Source: Escherichia phage LotteLoewe_Bas71
Sequence record: PQ850615.1
DNA: 42,712 nt
Direction: 5' to 3' (one strand)
Made by a program: the position numbers and the translations under genes. Shown here in pieces: positions 3,305 through 41,115 of this stretch. The notes beneath the pieces were generated by a model. The model was not told where the DNA came from. It did not search any database and was given only the letters and a program-made list of their open reading frames with translations. Each line of letters opens with the position of its first letter. Within the stretch, counting starts at the first letter, position 1.

Positions 3305-3314
3305 GTTCACCTAT

Positions 3315-3336
3315 AGCCCCGAAAGGGGCTTTCTTA
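3315..3336 (+). terminator. intrinsic terminator after portal gene
   Basis: AGCCCC-GAAA-GGGGCT stem-loop followed by TTCTTAT. Confidence 0.5.
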
Positions 3337-3340
3337 TAGT

Positions 3341-4417
3341 ATGCTATTAACTTTAGCGCCACAGGGTTTATCTATGAGCTTACTTACATCCCTAATCAGC
3401 CATCAGATATGGCTGCAACGCACCGCATCCGGTGAGGTGAAAGACCTCACGCCGTTCATTCAGGAGATAAGGGATGAAATCAAACGGCAGGTGCTGTTAT
3501 TCGGTGACGACGGTCGCAGCACTGCGCGACTGAATAAACTGTTACGCGACCTGGAAGAAGCACTAACCGGTATTACGGGTGACTGGCAAACAAAGCTAAC
3601 AGACGACCTTAAGGAACTGGCGGCGTACGAGGCTGAGTGGAACGTAAAGACACTGACCGCCAACGTAGACGCGGAATTTGTTACGCCTACCGCTGAGCAG
3701 GTATGGGCCGCTGCCGAGTTTCAACCATTATCATTGAGCGACAAGCCCGTTGATTTCACCAAGCTGATGGACGGCTGGGGTGAAACGGAAGTAGCACGTC
3801 TTGTAACTGGAGTTAAGATGGGCTTTGTGCAAGGTCAAACCACACGGCAGATTGTTAAGAATGTTGTTGGCGCTGGTGGACTAGCCGACATCTCAGAACG
3901 TAACGCGACTACGGTAATCCGCACCGCGCTGTCCCACGTATCCAACGAGGCCCGTAACGAGACGTACCGCCAGAACGACGACATCATCGAGAAGTACGAG
4001 TGGGTGTCAACGCTTGACAGCCGCACCAGTACGATTTGCAGGGTCAGAGACGGGATGACGTGGGAAATTGGTAAGGGGCCGATGCCCCCAGCCCATCCGA
4101 ACTGCCGGTCGTGCACGGCTCCGGTAATCAGTTCCGAGTTCGACTTCCTCGATAAAGGCGCAAAACGCGCGGCTAAAGGCGCGGAAGGTGGCACTCAGGT
4201 AAGCGCAGACACCACTTACTACGAGTTCCTTAAACAACAACCGGCGTGGTTTCAGGACCAGGCGCTCGGCCCGGTGCGAGGTAAGATTTTCCGTAACAGC
4301 GGTATATCGCCGGAAGAGTTTCGCGTAATATCTGTAGATGGTTTCGGGAATCCGCTCACGCTTAAGCAGATGGCGGAACTCGATAAACGTGTTGCTGATT
4401 ATCTGAAAGGGGAATAA
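3341..4417 (+). CDS. head morphogenesis / minor capsid protein (SPP1 gp7 / Mu F-like)
   Basis: 358 aa ORF following portal, the conserved position of the gp7/F-like head morphogenesis gene. Confidence 0.5.
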   Translation: MLLTLAPQGLSMSLLTSLISHQIWLQRTASGEVKDLTPFIQEIRDEIKRQVLLFGDDGRSTARLNKLLRDLEEALTGITGDWQTKLTDDLKELAAYEAEWNVKTLTANVDAEFVTPTAEQVWAAAEFQPLSLSDKPVDFTKLMDGWGETEVARLVTGVKMGFVQGQTTRQIVKNVVGAGGLADISERNATTVIRTALSHVSNEARNETYRQNDDIIEKYEWVSTLDSRTSTICRVRDGMTWEIGKGPMPPAHPNCRSCTAPVISSEFDFLDKGAKRAAKGAEGGTQVSADTTYYEFLKQQPAWFQDQALGPVRGKIFRNSGISPEEFRVISVDGFGNPLTLKQMAELDKRVADYLKGE

Positions 4418-4878
4418 TGATGGGCTTTTTCAAAGTAACTGACGTACCGTCTCGTCGCGTAGTCCAGTACGCCCGCGTGTCTGGCTCTGGCGAGAACGTG
4501 GTATTTATTGAGGACGAAAGTGTACTCGGTACACTGGTAGATGATATGCCGTTTGCAGATAAAACCGGTATTGCGTTGCCCGCCGCCGGTATGCTTTATG
4601 AAATTCCGTATCTGGCGGACGCTGGCGACGTGTATTTCTCTGCGCAACCGCAGGACGCTGAACTGGCGGGCGGCAGCGCAACCATCACTGTCGAGGTTAA
4701 GGCAGGCAAAGCGCCGTATTCTCTGACCTGGTACAAAGACGGTAAGGAAGTGGTGAATGCGCCTGAGGAGGCTCTGTCTCTGACGGTTAATGCGGTCGGC
4801 GAATACTTCGTTAAAGTTACTGATGCCGATGGAGTAGAGGCGGTAAGCAAAGCGGCGAAGGTTACTAAGCCAGAATGA
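4417..4878 (+). CDS. Ig-like domain protein (possible capsid decoration)
   Basis: C-terminal Ig-like signature (ATITVEVKAGKAPYSLTWYKDGKEV...GEYFVKVTDADG); ATGA overlap with upstream gene. Confidence 0.5.
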   Translation: MMGFFKVTDVPSRRVVQYARVSGSGENVVFIEDESVLGTLVDDMPFADKTGIALPAAGMLYEIPYLADAGDVYFSAQPQDAELAGGSATITVEVKAGKAPYSLTWYKDGKEVVNAPEEALSLTVNAVGEYFVKVTDADGVEAVSKAAKVTKPE

Positions 4879-4881
4879 TAA

Positions 4882-4909
4882 AAGGCCCCATTATGGGGCC
4901 TTAGTTTTC
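4882..4909. terminator. bidirectional intrinsic terminator
   Basis: AAGGCCCC-ATTAT-GGGGCCTT hairpin flanked by A-run upstream and T-run downstream; between convergent genes. Confidence 0.6.
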
Positions 4910-5111
4910 AACGGAATCTTGTGTTTAAATCCTGCTCATGGACAACCCTCAGAACAGTGTCATAATCCCCGTATCTTCCAGGTTCAAATATATCTAATGC
5001 CTTGTAAGCAGACATTGCGTCAGGGAAAACCTGCAGAACCTTTTTAACCCGGCACAAGTCACCGTCGAACTCTTCATCGAACTCTTGAACTACTTCGCAA
5101 ATTGCATACAT
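4908..5111 (-). CDS. hypothetical acidic 67-aa protein (opposite-strand accessory gene)
   Basis: Strong SD (AGGAGGTGA), own promoter at 5139..5167 and terminator at 4882..4909; antiparallel to flanking head genes. Confidence 0.55.
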   Translation of the reverse strand: MYAICEVVQEFDEEFDGDLCRVKKVLQVFPDAMSAYKALDIFEPGRYGDYDTVLRVVHEQDLNTRFR

Positions 5112-5138
5112 TTTTCACCTCCTGTTTAAGTTAACTGA

Positions 5139-5167
5139 ATAGTACCCTATTATATTGGGGTGTGCAA
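5139..5167 (-). promoter_or_regulatory. leftward class A promoter for accessory gene 4908..5111
   Basis: On the minus strand TTGCAC (5162..5167) - N17 - TACTAT (5139..5144); same palindromic core. Confidence 0.55.
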
Positions 5168-5208
5168 ACTATTTATTTACGTATTCCAGTTATTCCTCCG
5201 AATTGTAA

Positions 5209-5220
5209 ATGTTGGAATAA
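5209..5220 (+). promoter_or_regulatory. candidate late-promoter motif ATGTTGGAATAA (extended -10-like) upstream of spanins
   Basis: 12-mer identical to 5992..6003; contains TGgAATAA. Confidence 0.3.
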
Positions 5221-5221
5221 A

Positions 5222-5233
5222 CTATTCGAATAG
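5222..5233. repeat. perfect 12-bp palindrome CTATTCGAATAG
   Basis: Everted arrangement of the GAATAG/CTATTC half-sites found in the early promoter cores; adjacent to TTGACT (5234..5239). Confidence 0.5.
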
Positions 5234-5442
5234 TTGACTTTTCACTAAAAATATGATAAGCTCCACCTGAGCTTGTGAAGTATGAACAAGCGACCGCGGC
5301 GCGGGCAGGTAACGGAGCGGGACGTAAGTCCTGAGTGTAGTTACGCTGACGCGTTCGGAAGGGCCATACTCTATTGCTTGTGTAAAAAGTAACAGGTTTA
5401 CTGAGATTACGCCGTTTCTATGTTTAAATGATAAGGACTAGC

Positions 5443-5469
5443 GCCCTGCTTTAAGGCAGGGCTTTACTT
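5443..5469 (+). terminator. terminator/attenuator-like hairpin just upstream of the spanin RBS
   Basis: GCCCTGC-TTTAAG-GCAGGGC followed by TTTACTT; 17 nt before spanin ATG. Confidence 0.4.
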
Positions 5470-5486
5470 ATCGAGAAAGGAGAAAC

Positions 5487-5873
5487 ATGAATCTTAAAGC
5501 AACTGTCGTAGCAGGAGCATGTTTCATCATCCTGGTTTACGCACACGGCATCTACCAGTATCGCAGCGGATGGAACGAAGGCCGGGCTAATCTCGTTTCG
5601 CAGCAACAGCAGAAAGCACAGGCTGAGTTAGCGAAGAAAACACAACGGCAGCAGCAGGATGAATCGAAGGCCGCCGCCGCTGACAACGAAGGCAAGACGA
5701 AATCAGAGGTGATTACCCGTGAAGTCGTTAAGTACATTAAAACGCCTGGTCGCAGCGTGTGCACTTTTGACCCTGAGCGCGTGCAGCTCAAGTCCCGCGC
5801 CGTCGCCAACGCCAATTCCATCCCCGGATACGACGATGATGCAGCCGCCGTGCAAACTGGCGCAGCCAAGTAG
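5487..5873 (+). CDS. i-spanin (Rz-like)
   Basis: N-terminal TM helix (ATVVAGACFIILVYAHGIY), Q/A/K-rich predicted coiled coil; embeds a +1-frame lipoprotein ORF (classic Rz/Rz1 architecture). Confidence 0.65.
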   Translation: MNLKATVVAGACFIILVYAHGIYQYRSGWNEGRANLVSQQQQKAQAELAKKTQRQQQDESKAAAADNEGKTKSEVITREVVKYIKTPGRSVCTFDPERVQLKSRAVANANSIPGYDDDAAAVQTGAAK

Positions 5874-5982
5874 CGACGCTGATGAGGATTTGGCCGTCGA
5901 CGTTCAGAATGCTGAATGCGTACGGCAACTGAGGCTGAAAGTGTTTATGTTGCAGGATTACGTGAGGAATATTCTGGAATAG
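5719..5982 (+). CDS. o-spanin (Rz1-like outer-membrane lipoprotein)
   Basis: +1 frame overlapping the i-spanin; signal peptide with lipobox LTLSAC, proline-rich mature region. Confidence 0.65.
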   Translation: MKSLSTLKRLVAACALLTLSACSSSPAPSPTPIPSPDTTMMQPPCKLAQPSSDADEDLAVDVQNAECVRQLRLKVFMLQDYVRNILE

Positions 5983-11958: not shown

Positions 11959-11984
11959 AAGGCCCCTTTCGGGGCCTTTTTCTC
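11959..11984. terminator. bidirectional intrinsic terminator
   Basis: AAGGCCCC-TTTC-GGGGCCTT hairpin followed by TTTTCT; between major tail gene and leftward cassette. Confidence 0.6.
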
Positions 11985-12213
11985 ACTCATCAATATTACT
12001 TCGATACTCCCGTAACTTCTCCAGACTTTCAATTGCTTCTGCTAAGTCGGTTCCGGTGTCCTTGTGTCCACGTAAACCCATGCACAATAGCTTCTTCAAT
12101 GCGTGCTGTAACGCCGGGTCGCGGATGTCGAAAGCGCGGAGCACATCATAAACGTCTACTGTCATAGTGCTGCCGTGAGTATTTGTCATTGTGCGGTTGT
12201 ATTTTGAAGTCAT
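11983..12213 (-). CDS. hypothetical 76-aa protein (last gene of leftward cassette)
   Basis: ATGA-coupled to the upstream metallophosphoesterase gene; followed by terminator 11959..11984. Confidence 0.45.
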   Translation of the reverse strand: MTSKYNRTMTNTHGSTMTVDVYDVLRAFDIRDPALQHALKKLLCMGLRGHKDTGTDLAEAIESLEKLREYRSNIDE

Positions 12214-13340
12214 CCCAGCATCTCCGGTGAAATAGTTAAACGTGCGACCTCGCCATATTCGGCGCTATAAGTAATTACGTTTGCGCTACGCCCAGACATC
12301 CATCCGCCGCGCGAGGCGTAGGCGTCTTTCGCCGCTAAGGTGCGGTGTTGCTCAACAATCATGTTACGGCTTTCTACAATCTTCTGGTGGTGCAGGTGGC
12401 CTACGTGGGCGTAGCTGTAAACACTCTCACCGAACGCTTTGCGGAACTTGGCAATCATAACCGGTTCGATAGCGTCGAATCGTGCTTTATGCCCGTGATG
12501 GAAGAACAGCGTCGTTTTGCCGTGTTGCACCATCTTGTAAACATCCGGCGACGTATCAACAATCACTCGGCTGTCGTTTGAGTATAAAACCGTGAACATT
12601 TCGGCAAGCCATACGGAGCCAACAGGGTCGTGGTTACCTTGAACGATTAAAAGTTTTACTGTGTGATGCTTAACCAGCGCCATATCAACAACACGGCGGA
12701 CCATACGAATCATGTAACGTACCAGTTTCTGATAGCGAGTATCCGCATCTAATACATGGCGCGACTCGGGGGTAACGGCATCAAGACTATCGAAGTGTGC
12801 GAAATCACCCAGCAGGTTAATAACTCCTGTTCCTGCATCCGGTGCTTTCTGAAACGCCGCGTCGAACCAACGAGAGAACAGGTCTTCTGCAATCTTCATG
12901 TCCCAGTCGTCGCCGCTCTCATCGGCCCATGCCAGCATACCGAGATGGAAATCAGATACAGTGTAAAGATTGAGTAGCTTGTCGTCACGTTTGGCGCGCG
13001 CCGCTTTAACAGGCGCAACGGGCGTAATCTCTGACTTCATGCCCTCTATTACGGCTTTCATCAATTCAACCTGACGTTCGGCGTCGGTATCAGTCTTAAC
13101 CCATTGCAACTTAGTGTTGCCGAACTCGTCCACAAGTGACGACGTTCCTTTAATCTTGTAGCCGTCTGGCACAAGGTGGCTAACGTCGCGCCCGTGGCCC
13201 ACGCCTTTCTTAGCCAGCTTCGCTTTACGGATACGAATAACTCGGTCTGAGATGCCGTATTTACGGGCGATGTCTACATTCTTCATCCCGGCGTTCAATT
13301 CTTCCTGTAACTGTTCGTCGGTTATTTTCTTCTGGGCCAT
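12210..13340 (-). CDS. HTH-domain + calcineurin-like metallophosphoesterase
   Basis: Complete metallophosphatase motif series DFHLG / GDFAHFD / GNHD / HHGH / GHLHH in order; N-terminal HTH-like segment (NVDIARKYGISDRVIRIRK); GAGGAAG SD. Confidence 0.65.
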   Translation of the reverse strand: MAQKKITDEQLQEELNAGMKNVDIARKYGISDRVIRIRKAKLAKKGVGHGRDVSHLVPDGYKIKGTSSLVDEFGNTKLQWVKTDTDAERQVELMKAVIEGMKSEITPVAPVKAARAKRDDKLLNLYTVSDFHLGMLAWADESGDDWDMKIAEDLFSRWFDAAFQKAPDAGTGVINLLGDFAHFDSLDAVTPESRHVLDADTRYQKLVRYMIRMVRRVVDMALVKHHTVKLLIVQGNHDPVGSVWLAEMFTVLYSNDSRVIVDTSPDVYKMVQHGKTTLFFHHGHKARFDAIEPVMIAKFRKAFGESVYSYAHVGHLHHQKIVESRNMIVEQHRTLAAKDAYASRGGWMSGRSANVITYSAEYGEVARLTISPEMLG

Positions 13341-13405
13341 GCTTACTTCCTCGTGTTTAGGATTTGTCCTATTTAACCACAGTGGATTCCTTTAAATAAA
13401 GGCGA

Positions 13406-13732
13406 CTATTTACTTTCTGCGCCTATCGCCCACCCTGTCATTACCATTTGCAGACGGGTGGCTGTCAGTAGGCTATAGAAAGCATCTCCGTTTTTCTCTA
13501 CCGAACGTATCACTGTGTAGGTTACGGCCTGCGGGGGTAGGCCCGATTTACCAACCTCCACGGCGGCCTCACACTCGCGAACTGTAGAGTCCTTGAACGC
13601 CTTTACAATAGTAGGGTCGGCTTTATCAAGCACACCAGAAGTCATAAGAACAGATTCACTAAATACCTGTTCGCACGGGGCTCCAAAAGTAGCAAAAGAC
13701 ATAAAACCCAGAGCTAGTACTAATTTACGCAT
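13406..13732 (-). CDS. secreted (periplasmic) 108-aa protein
   Basis: N-terminal signal peptide (MRKLVLALGFMSFATFGA), two cysteines; first gene after promoter 13761..13789. Confidence 0.5.
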   Translation of the reverse strand: MRKLVLALGFMSFATFGAPCEQVFSESVLMTSGVLDKADPTIVKAFKDSTVRECEAAVEVGKSGLPPQAVTYTVIRSVEKNGDAFYSLLTATRLQMVMTGWAIGAESK

Positions 13733-13749: not shown

Positions 13750-13778
13750 GTTACATGTGAATAGTACCCTATTATATT
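13750..13778 (+). promoter_or_regulatory. candidate rightward promoter overlapping the leftward one (divergent pair)
   Basis: GTTACA (13750..13755) - N17 - TATATT (13773..13778) on the plus strand within the same palindromic element; upstream of tail chaperone operon. Confidence 0.35.
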
Positions 13779-13789
13779 GGGGTGTGCAA
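13761..13789 (-). promoter_or_regulatory. leftward class A promoter for cassette 13732..11983
   Basis: Minus strand TTGCAC (13784..13789) - N17 - TACTAT (13761..13766). Confidence 0.55.
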
Positions 13790-26510: not shown

Positions 26511-26826
26511 TTCTAAATTCCTTATATTGTTGGGGTATGTGCTTACTATAATAGTCTGCTATTAGGGTGTCAATCTGTTTTATCGAACCAACGACAAAAA
26601 CATTTGCGCCACGTTTACGTATACGCTCGTGTTCCCGTAGCTGGTGCGGGTCTGGCTTAGTGTTTTCGTCTTTCTTCACCTCGACGAACCAGACGATGCC
26701 GCCGGGTAGAATTGCCAGCAGGTCAGGAGCGCCTGAACGTCCTTCGTAGGAAAGTTTACGAACGAGGCCACCAATGGCCTCGAATCGCTCTTTTGCGTAT
26801 TTCTGGATGCGGCCCTCTTTAGTCAT
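26494..26826 (-). CDS. VRR-NUC domain nuclease
   Basis: PD-(D/E)XK-like core (GAPDLLAIL ... VWFVEVKKDEN) typical of VRR-NUC. Confidence 0.55.
   Translation of the reverse strand: MTKEGRIQKYAKERFEAIGGLVRKLSYEGRSGAPDLLAILPGGIVWFVEVKKDENTKPDPHQLREHERIRKRGANVFVVGSIKQIDTLIADYYSKHIPQQYKEFRNETRI
26545..26573 (-). promoter_or_regulatory. leftward class B promoter (TTGACA-N17-TATAGT)
   Basis: Minus strand TTGACA (26568..26573) - N17 - TATAGT (26545..26550); lies inside the 3' end of the VRR-NUC ORF. Confidence 0.5.
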
Positions 26827-30255: not shown

Positions 30256-30284
30256 ACTATAATAGCTAACTATTCATGTGTCAA
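30256..30284 (-). promoter_or_regulatory. leftward class B promoter (TTGACA-N17-TATAGT) for SSB-like gene
   Basis: Minus strand TTGACA (30279..30284) - N17 - TATAGT (30256..30261); core AATAGCTAACTATTCA. Confidence 0.55.
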
Positions 30285-32555: not shown

Positions 32556-32584
32556 ACTATAATAGCGAACTATTCACATGTCAA
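32556..32584 (-). promoter_or_regulatory. leftward class B promoter (TTGACA-N17-TATAGT) for acidic early gene
   Basis: Minus strand TTGACA (32579..32584) - N17 - TATAGT (32556..32561); core AATAGCGAACTATTCA. Confidence 0.6.
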
Positions 32585-36187: not shown

Positions 36188-36216
36188 TTGCACACCCCAA
36201 CATAATAGGATACTAT
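36188..36216 (+). promoter_or_regulatory. early promoter, class A (TTGCAC-N17-TACTAT) with palindromic core
   Basis: -35 TTGCAC 36188..36193, 17-nt spacer, -10 TACTAT 36211..36216; core CATAATAGGATACTATTCA. Confidence 0.55.
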
Positions 36217-37380: not shown

Positions 37381-37409
37381 TTGCACACTAATATAGAATA
37401 GGCTACTAT
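37381..37409 (+). promoter_or_regulatory. early promoter, class A (TTGCAC-N17-TACTAT)
   Basis: Same architecture and core (TAGAATAGGCTACTATTCA) as 36188; follows terminator 37266..37296. Confidence 0.55.
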
Positions 37410-39646: not shown

Positions 39647-39955
39647 TTGGATAAATTTACTGAAACAGTGACAGGCTGGCTTCTCGCTGCCGCACTAGCC
39701 GGAGGGGTAATCGGACTAAGGCAACATAAGTCCGCTATTTCCGGCCCTATCGACGGCTTCTGCTTTATTGCAACTGGCTTCACTTGCGCCGTATTTGGCG
39801 CACCTCTCGCAGCTCAATGGTTTGGAATCACGGGCGACCGTGAAATCGCAGGCCTGGGCTTCATTATCGCTATTCTCTGGATGCCTATCTATTCCCGTCT
39901 GTCCGGTATCGTCGCCGGAGAATACATCGCACGTCGAGGAGGCCCGGATGAATGA
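39647..39955 (+). CDS. holin
   Basis: 102 aa with predicted TM helices and charged C-terminus; TTG start with GGAGGA SD; adjacent to the endolysin. Confidence 0.55.
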   Translation: MDKFTETVTGWLLAAALAGGVIGLRQHKSAISGPIDGFCFIATGFTCAVFGAPLAAQWFGITGDREIAGLGFIIAILWMPIYSRLSGIVAGEYIARRGGPDE

Positions 39956-40214
39956 GTTATTCTGGTTCTGCGGTATGCTGGCAATCGGAGGCACATCGCT
40001 GTTTAATGTGTATCATCCCAGCGTTGACGACGGGCTATTTGGCCGGGTGCTCTATATCCTGACTGCTATTGTCTGCGCCGCAGGATGTATCCACCTGTTA
40101 CAGGGCAGCATGTCTCCGACGCTGCCTGAGACATTAATCACATTAGTTGCGCTGCGCCAGATTCGTCAGGCGTGGCTGTCATACGGAGGACATAAGCGTG
40201 TCTCGAAACATTAG
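39948..40214 (+). CDS. second small membrane protein of lysis cassette (holin/antiholin candidate)
   Basis: 88 aa with two hydrophobic segments; ATG 39948 with GAGGAGG SD; overlaps holin and endolysin. Confidence 0.45.
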   Translation: MNELFWFCGMLAIGGTSLFNVYHPSVDDGLFGRVLYILTAIVCAAGCIHLLQGSMSPTLPETLITLVALRQIRQAWLSYGGHKRVSKH

Positions 40215-40686
40215 CAACAATGGCATCAAATTCACCGCCGCGTTCGAGGGATTCCGCGGAACTGCGTATCGTGCTACGCCAAATGAGAAGTACCTGACTA
40301 TTGGGTACGGTCATTATGGGCCAGACGTAACGCCAGGCAAGACCATCACCCCGGGACAAGGCCTCCTGTTACTGAATCGTGATATGGCTAAGGCCGTAGC
40401 TGCGGTTGACGCAGCAGCACACCATTCATTGACACAGGCACAGTTCGATGCAGTGTGCGACCTGGTATACAACGCAGGTGCTGGTGTGATTGCAGCTACT
40501 ACCGGCACGGGTAAGGCACTGCGTTCTGGTGATATTGCAACGCTGCGGGCTAAGCTGGCGCTGTTCATCAACCAGAACGGCAAACCGATACTTGGACTGC
40601 GTCGTCGTACCGCCGGACGTCTGGCACTGTTCGACGGTAAACCGTGGCAAGAGGCAGAGGCTATTGGGCGCGCGGTGAAAGGTTGA
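40198..40686 (+). CDS. endolysin, phage lysozyme (GH24-like)
   Basis: Lysozyme-like region (IKFTAAFEGFRGTAYRATPNEKYLTIGYGH); GTG start with GGAGGA SD; followed by a terminator. Confidence 0.7.
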   Translation: MSRNISNNGIKFTAAFEGFRGTAYRATPNEKYLTIGYGHYGPDVTPGKTITPGQGLLLLNRDMAKAVAAVDAAAHHSLTQAQFDAVCDLVYNAGAGVIAATTGTGKALRSGDIATLRAKLALFINQNGKPILGLRRRTAGRLALFDGKPWQEAEAIGRAVKG

Positions 40687-40753
40687 CACCTGAGACTAAT
40701 CCGACGATACTTAAATCACCTCCTGTCCCATACCTCTGCTCTCCAGTTTTATC

Positions 40754-40782
40754 CCGGCCCTGACCCAGCCGGGATTTTTTTT
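40754..40782 (+). terminator. intrinsic terminator after lysis cassette
   Basis: CCCGGC-loop-GCCGGG followed by T8. Confidence 0.65.
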
Positions 40783-40804
40783 ATCTATTTTCTGCAATGA
40801 CTAG

Positions 40805-40833
40805 TTGACTATTACCTACGACCCTATTATATT
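40805..40833 (+). promoter_or_regulatory. rightward promoter (TTGACT-N17-TATATT)
   Basis: Canonical sigma70 spacing; sits right after terminator 40754..40782; spacer carries CCCTATTATAT, related to the shared core. Confidence 0.55.
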
Positions 40834-40866
40834 TACTCCATCGACAACGAGAACGGAGTAGAGAAG

Positions 40867-41115
40867 ATGAGTAACGTACAGACAATCGCAATAACCGAGG
40901 AACTTGAAGCCAAATGTATCGCATGGACTATGGGTAATGACCAGGTTGCTATGCGTAAATTTCCAATGAAAATCACAGACATCGAAGCATTCAAAGATGC
41001 ACAACTGATGGCACGTATTGCCGTTGGCAACCTGAGCAACAATATCCCGGCGGACGCGTTCTGGGCTGCGGCGATGCAGACACTTAAAGCAGCTTATGCA
41101 GGAGAGAAGAAATGA
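40867..41115 (+). CDS. hypothetical protein (82 aa)
   Basis: First ORF after promoter 40805..40833; leader ACGAGAACGGAG. Confidence 0.4.
   Translation: MSNVQTIAITEELEAKCIAWTMGNDQVAMRKFPMKITDIEAFKDAQLMARIAVGNLSNNIPADAFWAAAMQTLKAAYAGEKK

Follow-up and report, generated by a model that had tools for sequence, protein, structure and literature searches.

Why should one small gene lie on the opposite strand inside a phage head module, behind a promoter that points against the surrounding operon? The question is raised by the DNA of Escherichia phage LotteLoewe_Bas71 (PQ850615.1; 42,712 nucleotides, the whole stretch being referred to below as the window), in which a gene for an acidic protein of 67 amino acids (aa) runs antiparallel between the gene of a Hoc-like Ig decoration protein and the spanin genes Rz/Rz1 (Table 1). 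A sequence-only reading had described this gene, with a promoter, a strong Shine-Dalgarno sequence and a terminator of its own, as an autonomous single-gene accessory unit. Empty and differently filled counterparts with the same flanks, a deviant guanine-plus-cytosine (GC) content and mosaic identities bear this description out. The locus very probably represents a socket, in which a swappable accessory gene (the cargo) is held between a fixed promoter and a fixed terminator.

The window belongs to Kagunavirus (Guernseyvirinae) and is closely related to many phages of this genus; Escherichia phage SonjaBuckley_Bas74 (BASEL) is 99.5% identical to it over the 1.5 kb compared (4400-5900). The genes of the head module follow one another on the plus strand in the order terminase, portal, MuF-like head morphogenesis protein, Hoc-like Ig decoration protein, Rz/Rz1, scaffold and major capsid. 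The interval between Hoc and Rz (Hoc|Rz) was extracted, from the stop codon of the Hoc-like gene to the start of Rz, from 48 IMG/VR loci (fetched through the Rz protein, many of them from the single metagenome 3300045988) and from 4 GenBank loci. In about 19 of 51 loci, namely nine of the E. coli type and all ten of the Salmonella Jerseyvirus type, the same backbone carries an empty gap of 317-343 bp. All non-empty gaps hold one cargo gene, occasionally two, and always on the minus strand. The cargo falls into about a dozen mutually unrelated families: beside the 67-aa protein these include a 173-aa protein (phrog_3007), an N6_N4 DNA methyltransferase, a D12/Dam-type methyltransferase (in phage EM1), an endonuclease VII/HNH-like protein, a 114-aa lipoprotein and several small proteins, some with a signal peptide or a membrane segment.

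When the filled slots are aligned in the orientation of the cargo, both flanks are the same for all cargo. Upstream stands aaatagTTTGCAC...aaYATAATAGGGTACTATtcagttaacttaaacAGGAG..ATG, and downstream the stop codon is followed by AAACTAAGGCCCC, a loop and GGGGCCTTTTA. The constant promoter/leader of ~55 nucleotides is present in every filled gap, its Shine-Dalgarno sequence being common to unrelated cargo genes, and every cargo-bearing slot has the GGCCCC/GGGGCC variant of the hairpin with a T-run on the minus strand. In most cassettes, the similarity of the flanks stops within ~8 nucleotides of the start codon and 1-5 nucleotides past the stop codon. The E. coli-type empty slots have no promoter and carry a different hairpin, AAGCCCCGAAAGGGGCTTTTT, without a minus-strand T-run; the promoter and terminator sequence elements co-vary with the presence of cargo. 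Since the flanks are constant and the open reading frame (ORF) differs between relatives, Hoc|Rz can be regarded as a socket with constant expression signals, in which the ORF is replaceable.

Setting empty slots against filled ones also delimits the complete cassette of the window, and backbone conservation picks up again at the motif ATTCCAGTTATTCC (5183). Its GC content is 0.40, and that of the ORF 0.43, versus 0.53 in Hoc, 0.55 in Rz and 0.51 in the whole window. The strong Shine-Dalgarno sequence is found as claimed, whereas the terminator can be called the cassette's own only in part. Its hairpin is followed by TTTTAT on the minus strand, as a terminator of the cassette requires, and by TTAGTTTTC on the plus strand, with a folding energy of about -17 kcal/mol in either orientation. 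Because a T-run follows the stem on the plus strand too, the hairpin is probably bidirectional and would also end the Hoc transcript; it is a predicted terminator common to the convergent Hoc and cassette transcripts, not exclusively the cassette's.

The history of the gene differs from that of its neighbours, the gene being more conserved than those that flank it. Nucleotide identity to the ORF of the window is 97.5-100% in three phages and 93% in a fourth, whereas the Hoc genes of the same four phages are 85.5-87.4% and the Rz genes 92.8-94.8% identical. Other phage genera have homologues at 44-63% identity, placed in other genomic contexts. In Salmonella virus VSt10 the homologue is antiparallel between portal and MuF (portal|MuF), and in Klebsiella phage Geezett it occupies the same junction, likewise antiparallel, with a different promoter. 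In Klebsiella phage vB_Kpn2-P2 and Salmonella phage Shemara the homologues are co-directional within small-gene arrays (early or replication), and another follows the family-A DNA polymerase gene in a DNA polymerase A/SNF2 phage. The cassette is, on this distribution, horizontally mobile. No conserved partner gene is recognised, because the genes downstream of the Geezett and vB_Kpn2-P2 homologues are mutually unrelated. The upstream neighbour in vB_Kpn2-P2 (L054 2524-2985), annotated as RNA ligase, gives a sub-threshold match to Acb1/2H-phosphoesterase (E=1e-3, 19 bits versus a cut-off of 27); such an Acb1-like protein, directed against the cyclic oligonucleotide-based anti-phage signalling system (CBASS), would hint, weakly, at an anti-defence neighbourhood.

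The family is very small, with 50 clusters in a collection of 5.8 billion proteins, and is restricted to phages. An exhaustive HMMER search of 1.84 billion representative proteins yielded 22 matches at E<=1e-3, mostly small (51-75 aa); three repetitive matches of 338-895 aa, with five stretches each, are likely spurious. In P0055 (130 aa; L062 1003-1395, a JGI metagenome contig) the homologue is fused to an N-terminal DUF905 domain, and one further homologue has an N-terminal extension of 39 residues. DUF905 is loosely associated with prophage islands and islands of integrative and conjugative elements, and gives no functional lead beyond that. No homologue of the protein was found in 72,556 plasmids, and none of 5,426 complete E. 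coli genomes matches the cassette DNA. The gene is present in each of the seven Kagunavirus isolates of BASEL.

The promoter named in the sequence-only reading, here called PA, has the form TTGCAC-N17-TACTAT and, as a predicted element, is repeated in the window and in relatives. Four full copies, the cassette's included, occur in the window, and PA is nearly invariant upstream of all cargo types. Transcription from the cassette copy would start at about 5132, before a leader of ~20 nucleotides that contains the strong Shine-Dalgarno sequence. The 71-nucleotide promoter/leader was found at 348 places in 156 GenBank records of Escherichia, Salmonella, Raoultella, Shigella and Klebsiella phages, and most of the matches listed fall where no feature is annotated. 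Across IMG/VR, the exact 18-mer ATAATAGGGTACTATTCA is confined to Kagunavirus-like contigs, and downstream of it 18 unrelated first-ORF families were counted in 35 contigs.

The -10 hexamer is overlapped by the quasi-palindromic 15-mer ATAATAGGGTACTAT (ATARTA-N3-TAYTAT), which occurs 11 times in the window at <=3 mismatches versus 0.75 expected. This enrichment, the three further full copies of PA and the 348 places in GenBank argue that PA is not a chance match. The same 15-mer is embedded, in the opposite orientation, in each of three leftward promoters (TTGACA-17-TATAGT); for this reason it may represent a common operator for a dimeric phage regulator instead of a plain -10, and could be a regulator-binding site overlapping the -10. 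An alternative -10, TATAAT (5148-5153), was rejected as the principal element: no -35-like hexamer lies 16-18 nucleotides upstream, and half of the copies read CATAAT.

The Hoc|Rz locus is not the only place where these elements are used. In relatives the same promoter, leader and hairpin also flank cargo at the portal|MuF junction; this cargo is a homologue of the 67-aa protein in VSt10 and in contigs carrying P0012, and a 173-aa, 59-aa or 61-aa gene in others. In the window this second socket is empty: a degenerate 15-mer, TTAATAGCATACTAT (3336-3350, minus strand), adjoins the portal terminator hairpin directly, and no ORF separates the two. At this junction some relatives have a KilA-N-like protein of ~190-225 aa with a different promoter. 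A third site is an antiparallel island in the tail module, probably driven by a copy of PA with exactly the cassette's 15-mer; here the promoter recurs alone, the GGCCCC/GGGGCC hairpin being constant at the two head-module sites. The first gene of this island, 13406..13732 on the minus strand, encodes 108 aa with a signal peptide; a 76-aa protein and a 376-aa protein, annotated in Bas74 as DNA repair exonuclease, are also present, the latter reading as metallophosphatase-like with a helix-turn-helix-like stretch at its N-terminus. The first position is variable, being taken by an Imm_superinfect protein in Bas74 and 14 metagenomic loci and by a 97-aa membrane protein in another locus. The Imm_superinfect (PF14373) match behind the 18-mer reaches 46.9 bits versus a cut-off of 27.9. 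The gene under study is, as far as these alignments go, cargo at one of three Guernseyvirinae sites using the same predicted promoter.

Table 1. Positions in the window of the cassette, its control elements and related or neighbouring features.
Feature	Position	Strand	Basis or remark
Complete exchangeable cassette: hairpin, ORF, leader/Shine-Dalgarno, promoter, AT-rich upstream stretch	4882..5182	-	Comparison of empty and filled slots
67-aa protein gene, ATG start, TGA stop at 4908-4910	4908..5111	-	Bas74_0006, annotated 'hypothetical protein'
Shine-Dalgarno sequence AGGAGGTG, 4 nucleotides before ATG	5116-5123	-	Read from the sequence
Hairpin AAGGCCCC-ATTAT-GGGGCCTT, 9-bp stem, 6 G-C pairs	4882..4902	both	Terminator scan (minus strand) and folding
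Promoter PA: -35 TTGCAC (5162-5167), 17-nucleotide spacer, -10 TACTAT (5139-5144)	5139..5167	-	Predicted function
Quasi-palindromic 15-mer ATAATAGGGTACTAT, overlapping the -10	5139..5153	.	Repeat scan
PA copy, tail module	13761..13789	-	Motif scan
PA copy, start of rightward small-gene array	36188..36216	+	Motif scan
PA copy, within rightward small-gene array	37381..37409	+	Motif scan
Portal|MuF junction, empty second socket	3305..3373	.	Comparison with relatives
Antiparallel tail-module island, probably driven by the PA copy 13761-13789	11983..13732	-	ORFs and promoter scan
Three leftward promoters TTGACA-17-TATAGT, 11/12 consensus, before replication genes	26545-26573, 30256-30284, 32556-32584	-	Scan
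Hoc-like Ig decoration gene	4417..4878	+	phrog_3945, E=7e-85
Rz and Rz1 spanin genes	5487..5873 and 5719..5982	+	phrog_2536 and phrog_5672

Two kinds of exchangeable unit described in phages resemble this arrangement. The moron of lambdoid phages (Juhala/Hendrix; reviewed by Cumby, Davidson & Maxwell 2012, PMC3594210) is an inserted gene that brings a promoter and a terminator of its own and differs from its neighbours in GC content. The cassette is likewise inserted between genes that are adjacent in relatives, as the empty gaps demonstrate; it has candidate promoter and terminator elements, the hairpin being common with the Hoc transcript, as well as deviant GC and horizontal spread, and lies inside a late operon for morphogenesis, as does gene 15 of HK97 in the tail operon. 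Classical morons, however, belong to temperate phages, in which these two elements serve to express the gene from a repressed prophage, whereas the cassette is found in a virulent siphovirus and has no match in the E. coli genomes or plasmids searched. Expression from a prophage does not apply here: no integrase is annotated in the near-identical Bas74, and the Kagunavirus phages of BASEL were obtained and described as viruses that form plaques (PMC11990801). Constant flanks, common to many unrelated cargo genes and to several sites, are also no part of the moron definition.

The promoter-early stem-loop (PeSL) cassettes of T4-type phages (Arbiol et al. 2010, PMC2839356; Comeau et al. 2014, PMC4122927), ~50 per genome, share other traits with the socket. 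Here, too, repeated promoter and stem-loop terminator motifs bracket variable, non-essential orphan genes in a virulent phage; modular shuffling through recombination of the repeats was proposed, and a few PeSL copies lie inside virion modules. Correspondingly, the replacement junctions of the socket fall at the constant promoter/leader and the hairpin, with the motif occurring 2-4 times per genome. The PeSL is nevertheless one composite intergenic motif, whereas the socket promoter and hairpin stand on opposite sides of a single ORF. PeSLs mostly form tandem arrays in hyperplastic regions, co-directional with their neighbours, whereas socket units are antiparallel to the late genes and number only 2-4 copies in a 42-45-kb genome. 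The PeSL promoter is an early one of sigma-70 consensus, whereas PA is non-consensus (7/12) and contains the quasi-palindromic 15-mer. Recombination between PeSL motifs yields encapsidated mini-circles (PMC2839356).

Cassettes of the integron type depend on a site-specific integrase and attC/attI sites, whereas no integrase is annotated in Bas74 and the socket flanks are a promoter and a terminator with no attC-like imperfect repeats. Phage accessory regions (Silas et al., bioRxiv 10.1101/2023.04.06.535777; PMC12373910) are likewise hotspots between conserved core genes with highly variable, mostly uncharacterised small genes, among them established counter-defence genes such as methyltransferases, but were defined by gene variability alone, shared regulatory flanks being no part of the concept; the 67-aa sequence is absent from the supplementary files of both papers. 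No description of the socket or its promoter was found in the searchable Kagunavirus, Jerseyvirus and historic K1-phage literature. The cassette is, to judge from its layout, a moron-like or PeSL-like exchangeable unit.

Expression of the cassette could proceed as follows. Host RNA polymerase would start near 5132 at PA and stop at the hairpin, which would give an mRNA of ~250 nucleotides, translated efficiently from the perfect Shine-Dalgarno sequence. Since the unit points against the head operon, its expression should be uncoupled from late transcription, and the antiparallel orientation together with the bidirectional hairpin could insulate cassette and operon from one another. Timing is probably early, because PA also introduces the rightward small-gene arrays (36.2 and 37.4 kb) and probably drives a gene of the Imm type. 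Replacement of the cargo would best be explained by homologous recombination during co-infection via the promoter flank of ~55-70 bp and the hairpin flank of ~30 bp. An exonuclease and a single-strand annealing protein are included in the Bas74 annotation, and these phage enzymes possibly serve the exchange.

The product offers few clues to its function. The gene lies where the sequence-only reading placed it, and the protein is acidic, with an isoelectric point (pI) of 4.5, a net charge of about -6.4 and 14 D+E versus 8 K+R. An AlphaFold2 model built on an alignment of 42 sequences, with a mean predicted local distance difference test (pLDDT) score of 94.6 and a predicted template modelling (pTM) score of 0.77, has a small α/β fold: a long beta-hairpin (2-12/17-29), a helix (32-41), a short helix (44-47) and a third strand (53-58). 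Conserved positions include C5-E6, the F15-D16-G17 turn, L26-Q27, P44, D49, T52 and R55-V57; the C-terminal Phe-Arg is near-invariant, Arg67 being invariant and Phe66 present in >=90% of sequences. No enzymatic motif was found, nor was a signal peptide, lipobox or hydrophobic segment seen in sequence, alignment or model, no dedicated topology predictor having been run.

That the protein has no recognisable motif was confirmed by remote-homology and structure searches, which returned no characterised relative. Pfam, NCBIfam and PDB sequence searches gave no matches, and Foldseek found nothing in the PDB for the model. The sole PHROGs match, phrog_27256 (unknown function), is weak (E=4e-4; residues 2-67 versus profile positions 4-65 of 65), and the fold matches in BFVD (TM 0.75-0.95) are uncharacterised phage proteins only, such as those from VSt10 (A0A385EGZ4) and Enterobacter phage EcP1 (E9NID7). 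These three match over the full length or share the predicted fold, but have no characterised function and hence add no mechanism. Neither in sequence nor in fold is there similarity to known anti-defence families (Ocr, ArdA, Acr, Acb, Tad and others in Pfam/PDB).

Could the ORF be a passenger without function, or have arisen by chance on the antisense strand of a recombination hotspot? Among relatives whose flanks are intact, most lack it, and the ORF list of the window contains many spurious ORFs of about this size, so that its length is no evidence for a gene. Absence with intact flanks had been named in the sequence-only reading as a sign that the ORF is not under selection; the absence is observed, but the missing selection is contradicted by the substitutions. 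Between genera, the proportion of nonsynonymous differences (pN) is 0.25-0.46 at a saturated synonymous proportion (pS) of 0.75-1.0, and close pairs give a nonsynonymous-to-synonymous ratio (omega) of 0.16-0.57, because of which the empty slots are no sign of missing selection; the gene is evidently under purifying selection. Length and motifs are kept across the 50 protein clusters, several genera and different contexts, and the strong Shine-Dalgarno sequence and the high pLDDT also speak against a passenger. Conservation across genera, pN far below pS and the confident predicted fold argue for a real gene, and the passenger reading is largely refuted, its remaining probability being minimal. 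The acidity of the product, together with two kinds of DNA methyltransferase as alternative cargo, which would be another route past restriction, could point to an anti-restriction DNA mimic of the Ocr or ArdA type. A net charge of only about -6 and the lack of Ocr or ArdA similarity in Pfam, PDB sequence and fold searches make this highly improbable, and broad anti-restriction is unlikely because the seven BASEL carriers are reported to be highly sensitive to restriction-modification (PMC11990801). A superinfection-exclusion or inter-phage competition factor, exclusion having been suggested in the sequence-only reading beside anti-defence, would agree with the Imm_superinfect-family protein driven by the tail-module PA in many relatives, and with the lipoprotein and small membrane proteins among the alternative cargo. 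Imm, Sp, Cor, Llp and SieA, however, all act at the envelope, and the 67-aa protein, a predicted soluble α/β domain, has no targeting signal, for which reason envelope-type exclusion is unlikely and this role as a whole improbable.

More weight falls on two readings in which a soluble, acidic, single-domain cytoplasmic α/β protein would bind and block a host protein. The target could be a conserved host machine (RNA polymerase, a nuclease, a protease adaptor or a division protein), the product then being a host-takeover factor like T7 Gp2/Gp0.4 or a phage-internal regulator. This is the main rival, although an unlikely one: the gene is dispensable, and there is no significant structural match to known takeover proteins. 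Because most close relatives lack the gene or replace it with other cargo, a benefit under certain conditions is more plausible than a central part in takeover. The tentatively favoured target is a component of a strain-specific defence against phages, since the gene can be dispensed with, moves between phages and has a patchy distribution, the same hotspots also carry methyltransferases and an exclusion protein, and no enzymatic motif is present. DNA methyltransferases among the cargo of this and the portal|MuF socket and the Imm-family immunity protein behind the tail-module PA speak for a role in anti-defence or exclusion. This anti-defence role, taken by itself, is possible without reaching an even chance. 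The wider statement, a moron-like exchangeable accessory cassette whose product acts on a host protein, most plausibly a defence component, is on balance probable. A bolder version is doubtful as a whole, namely a plug-and-play platform at three fixed sites, two antiparallel in the head module and one in the tail module, where ORFs are exchanged almost exactly from start to stop codon; it would capture and display counter-defence and exclusion genes under one 15-mer operator, with the 67-aa protein founding a family that inhibits an enterobacterial defence or host factor via its near-invariant C-terminal Phe-Arg.

Several observations weigh against the reading of the locus as an exchangeable socket with an early expressed anti-defence gene. 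The cargo frequencies are biased because so many IMG/VR loci share metagenome 3300045988. PA agrees with the sigma-70 consensus at 7/12 positions, and a generic sigma-70 scan gave no call, since the -35 hexamer matches at only 3/6 positions; PA might require a phage factor, in which case timing would be middle instead of early. Recombination between the flanks is deduced from sequence patterns only. The BASEL Kagunavirus isolates, in addition to their sensitivity to restriction-modification systems, are variably sensitive to Old (PMC11990801), and it was not possible to map the RNA-seq paper on Kagunavirus K1B4 (PMC12645636) to this gene.

Phages of Kagunavirus and Jerseyvirus are frequent candidates for therapy and biocontrol and small chassis for synthetic biology. 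If two or three fixed sockets do hold the strain-specific arsenal of these phages (methyltransferases, exclusion proteins of the Imm type and uncharacterised small proteins), they are the places to seek determinants of host range and counter-defence. They are also natural insertion sites for engineered payloads, with promoter, ribosome-binding site and terminator ready. The architecture also provides a short, enriched list of uncharacterised small proteins for screening against defence systems, and the 67-aa family would be a good one to begin with: it moves between genera, is under selection, has a confidently predicted fold and resembles nothing characterised. Modular shuffling of the PeSL type would be extended from large T4-like myoviruses to small virulent siphoviruses.

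Some observations on the surroundings of the cassette were made in passing. OR594180.1 (Escherichia phage vB_EcoM_SHAK7693) has Autographiviridae/Kayfunavirus in its GenBank taxonomy line and a 'vB_EcoM' name; it is probably mislabelled, because its head module is collinear with the window and, over the aligned 86% of the 1.5-kb query, 92.8% identical to this Kagunavirus siphovirus. The spanin genes Rz/Rz1 are located in the head module, ~34 kb from the holin/endolysin genes (Bas74 39759-40908; window coordinates are offset), and a lysis cassette split between these two loci is an unusual arrangement.

Before Rz, a conserved non-coding leader (5183-5486, plus strand) is present in all 48 loci, those of the Salmonella Jerseyvirus type included. 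A 36-aa ORF annotated within it (5282..5392, plus strand; Bas74_0007) is unlikely to be a gene, since Salmonella-type loci have lost its start region but keep the RNA stems. No Rfam match was obtained for the leader, nor anything meaningful for the whole window at the gathering threshold or for 5150-5500 at E<=10, and no Q-like protein is annotated. The leader comprises an inverted repeat TTATTCC...GGAATAA, a predicted promoter TTGACT-17-TGnTAAGCT with extended -10 (about 5234-5262), an RNA of ~190 nucleotides with compensatory base changes in 8/37 predicted pairs, and a predicted hairpin terminator (5443-5462) directly before the Shine-Dalgarno sequence of Rz. This layout resembles lambda pR'-6S RNA-tR' and suggests, by analogy, antitermination control of the spanin, scaffold and capsid genes.

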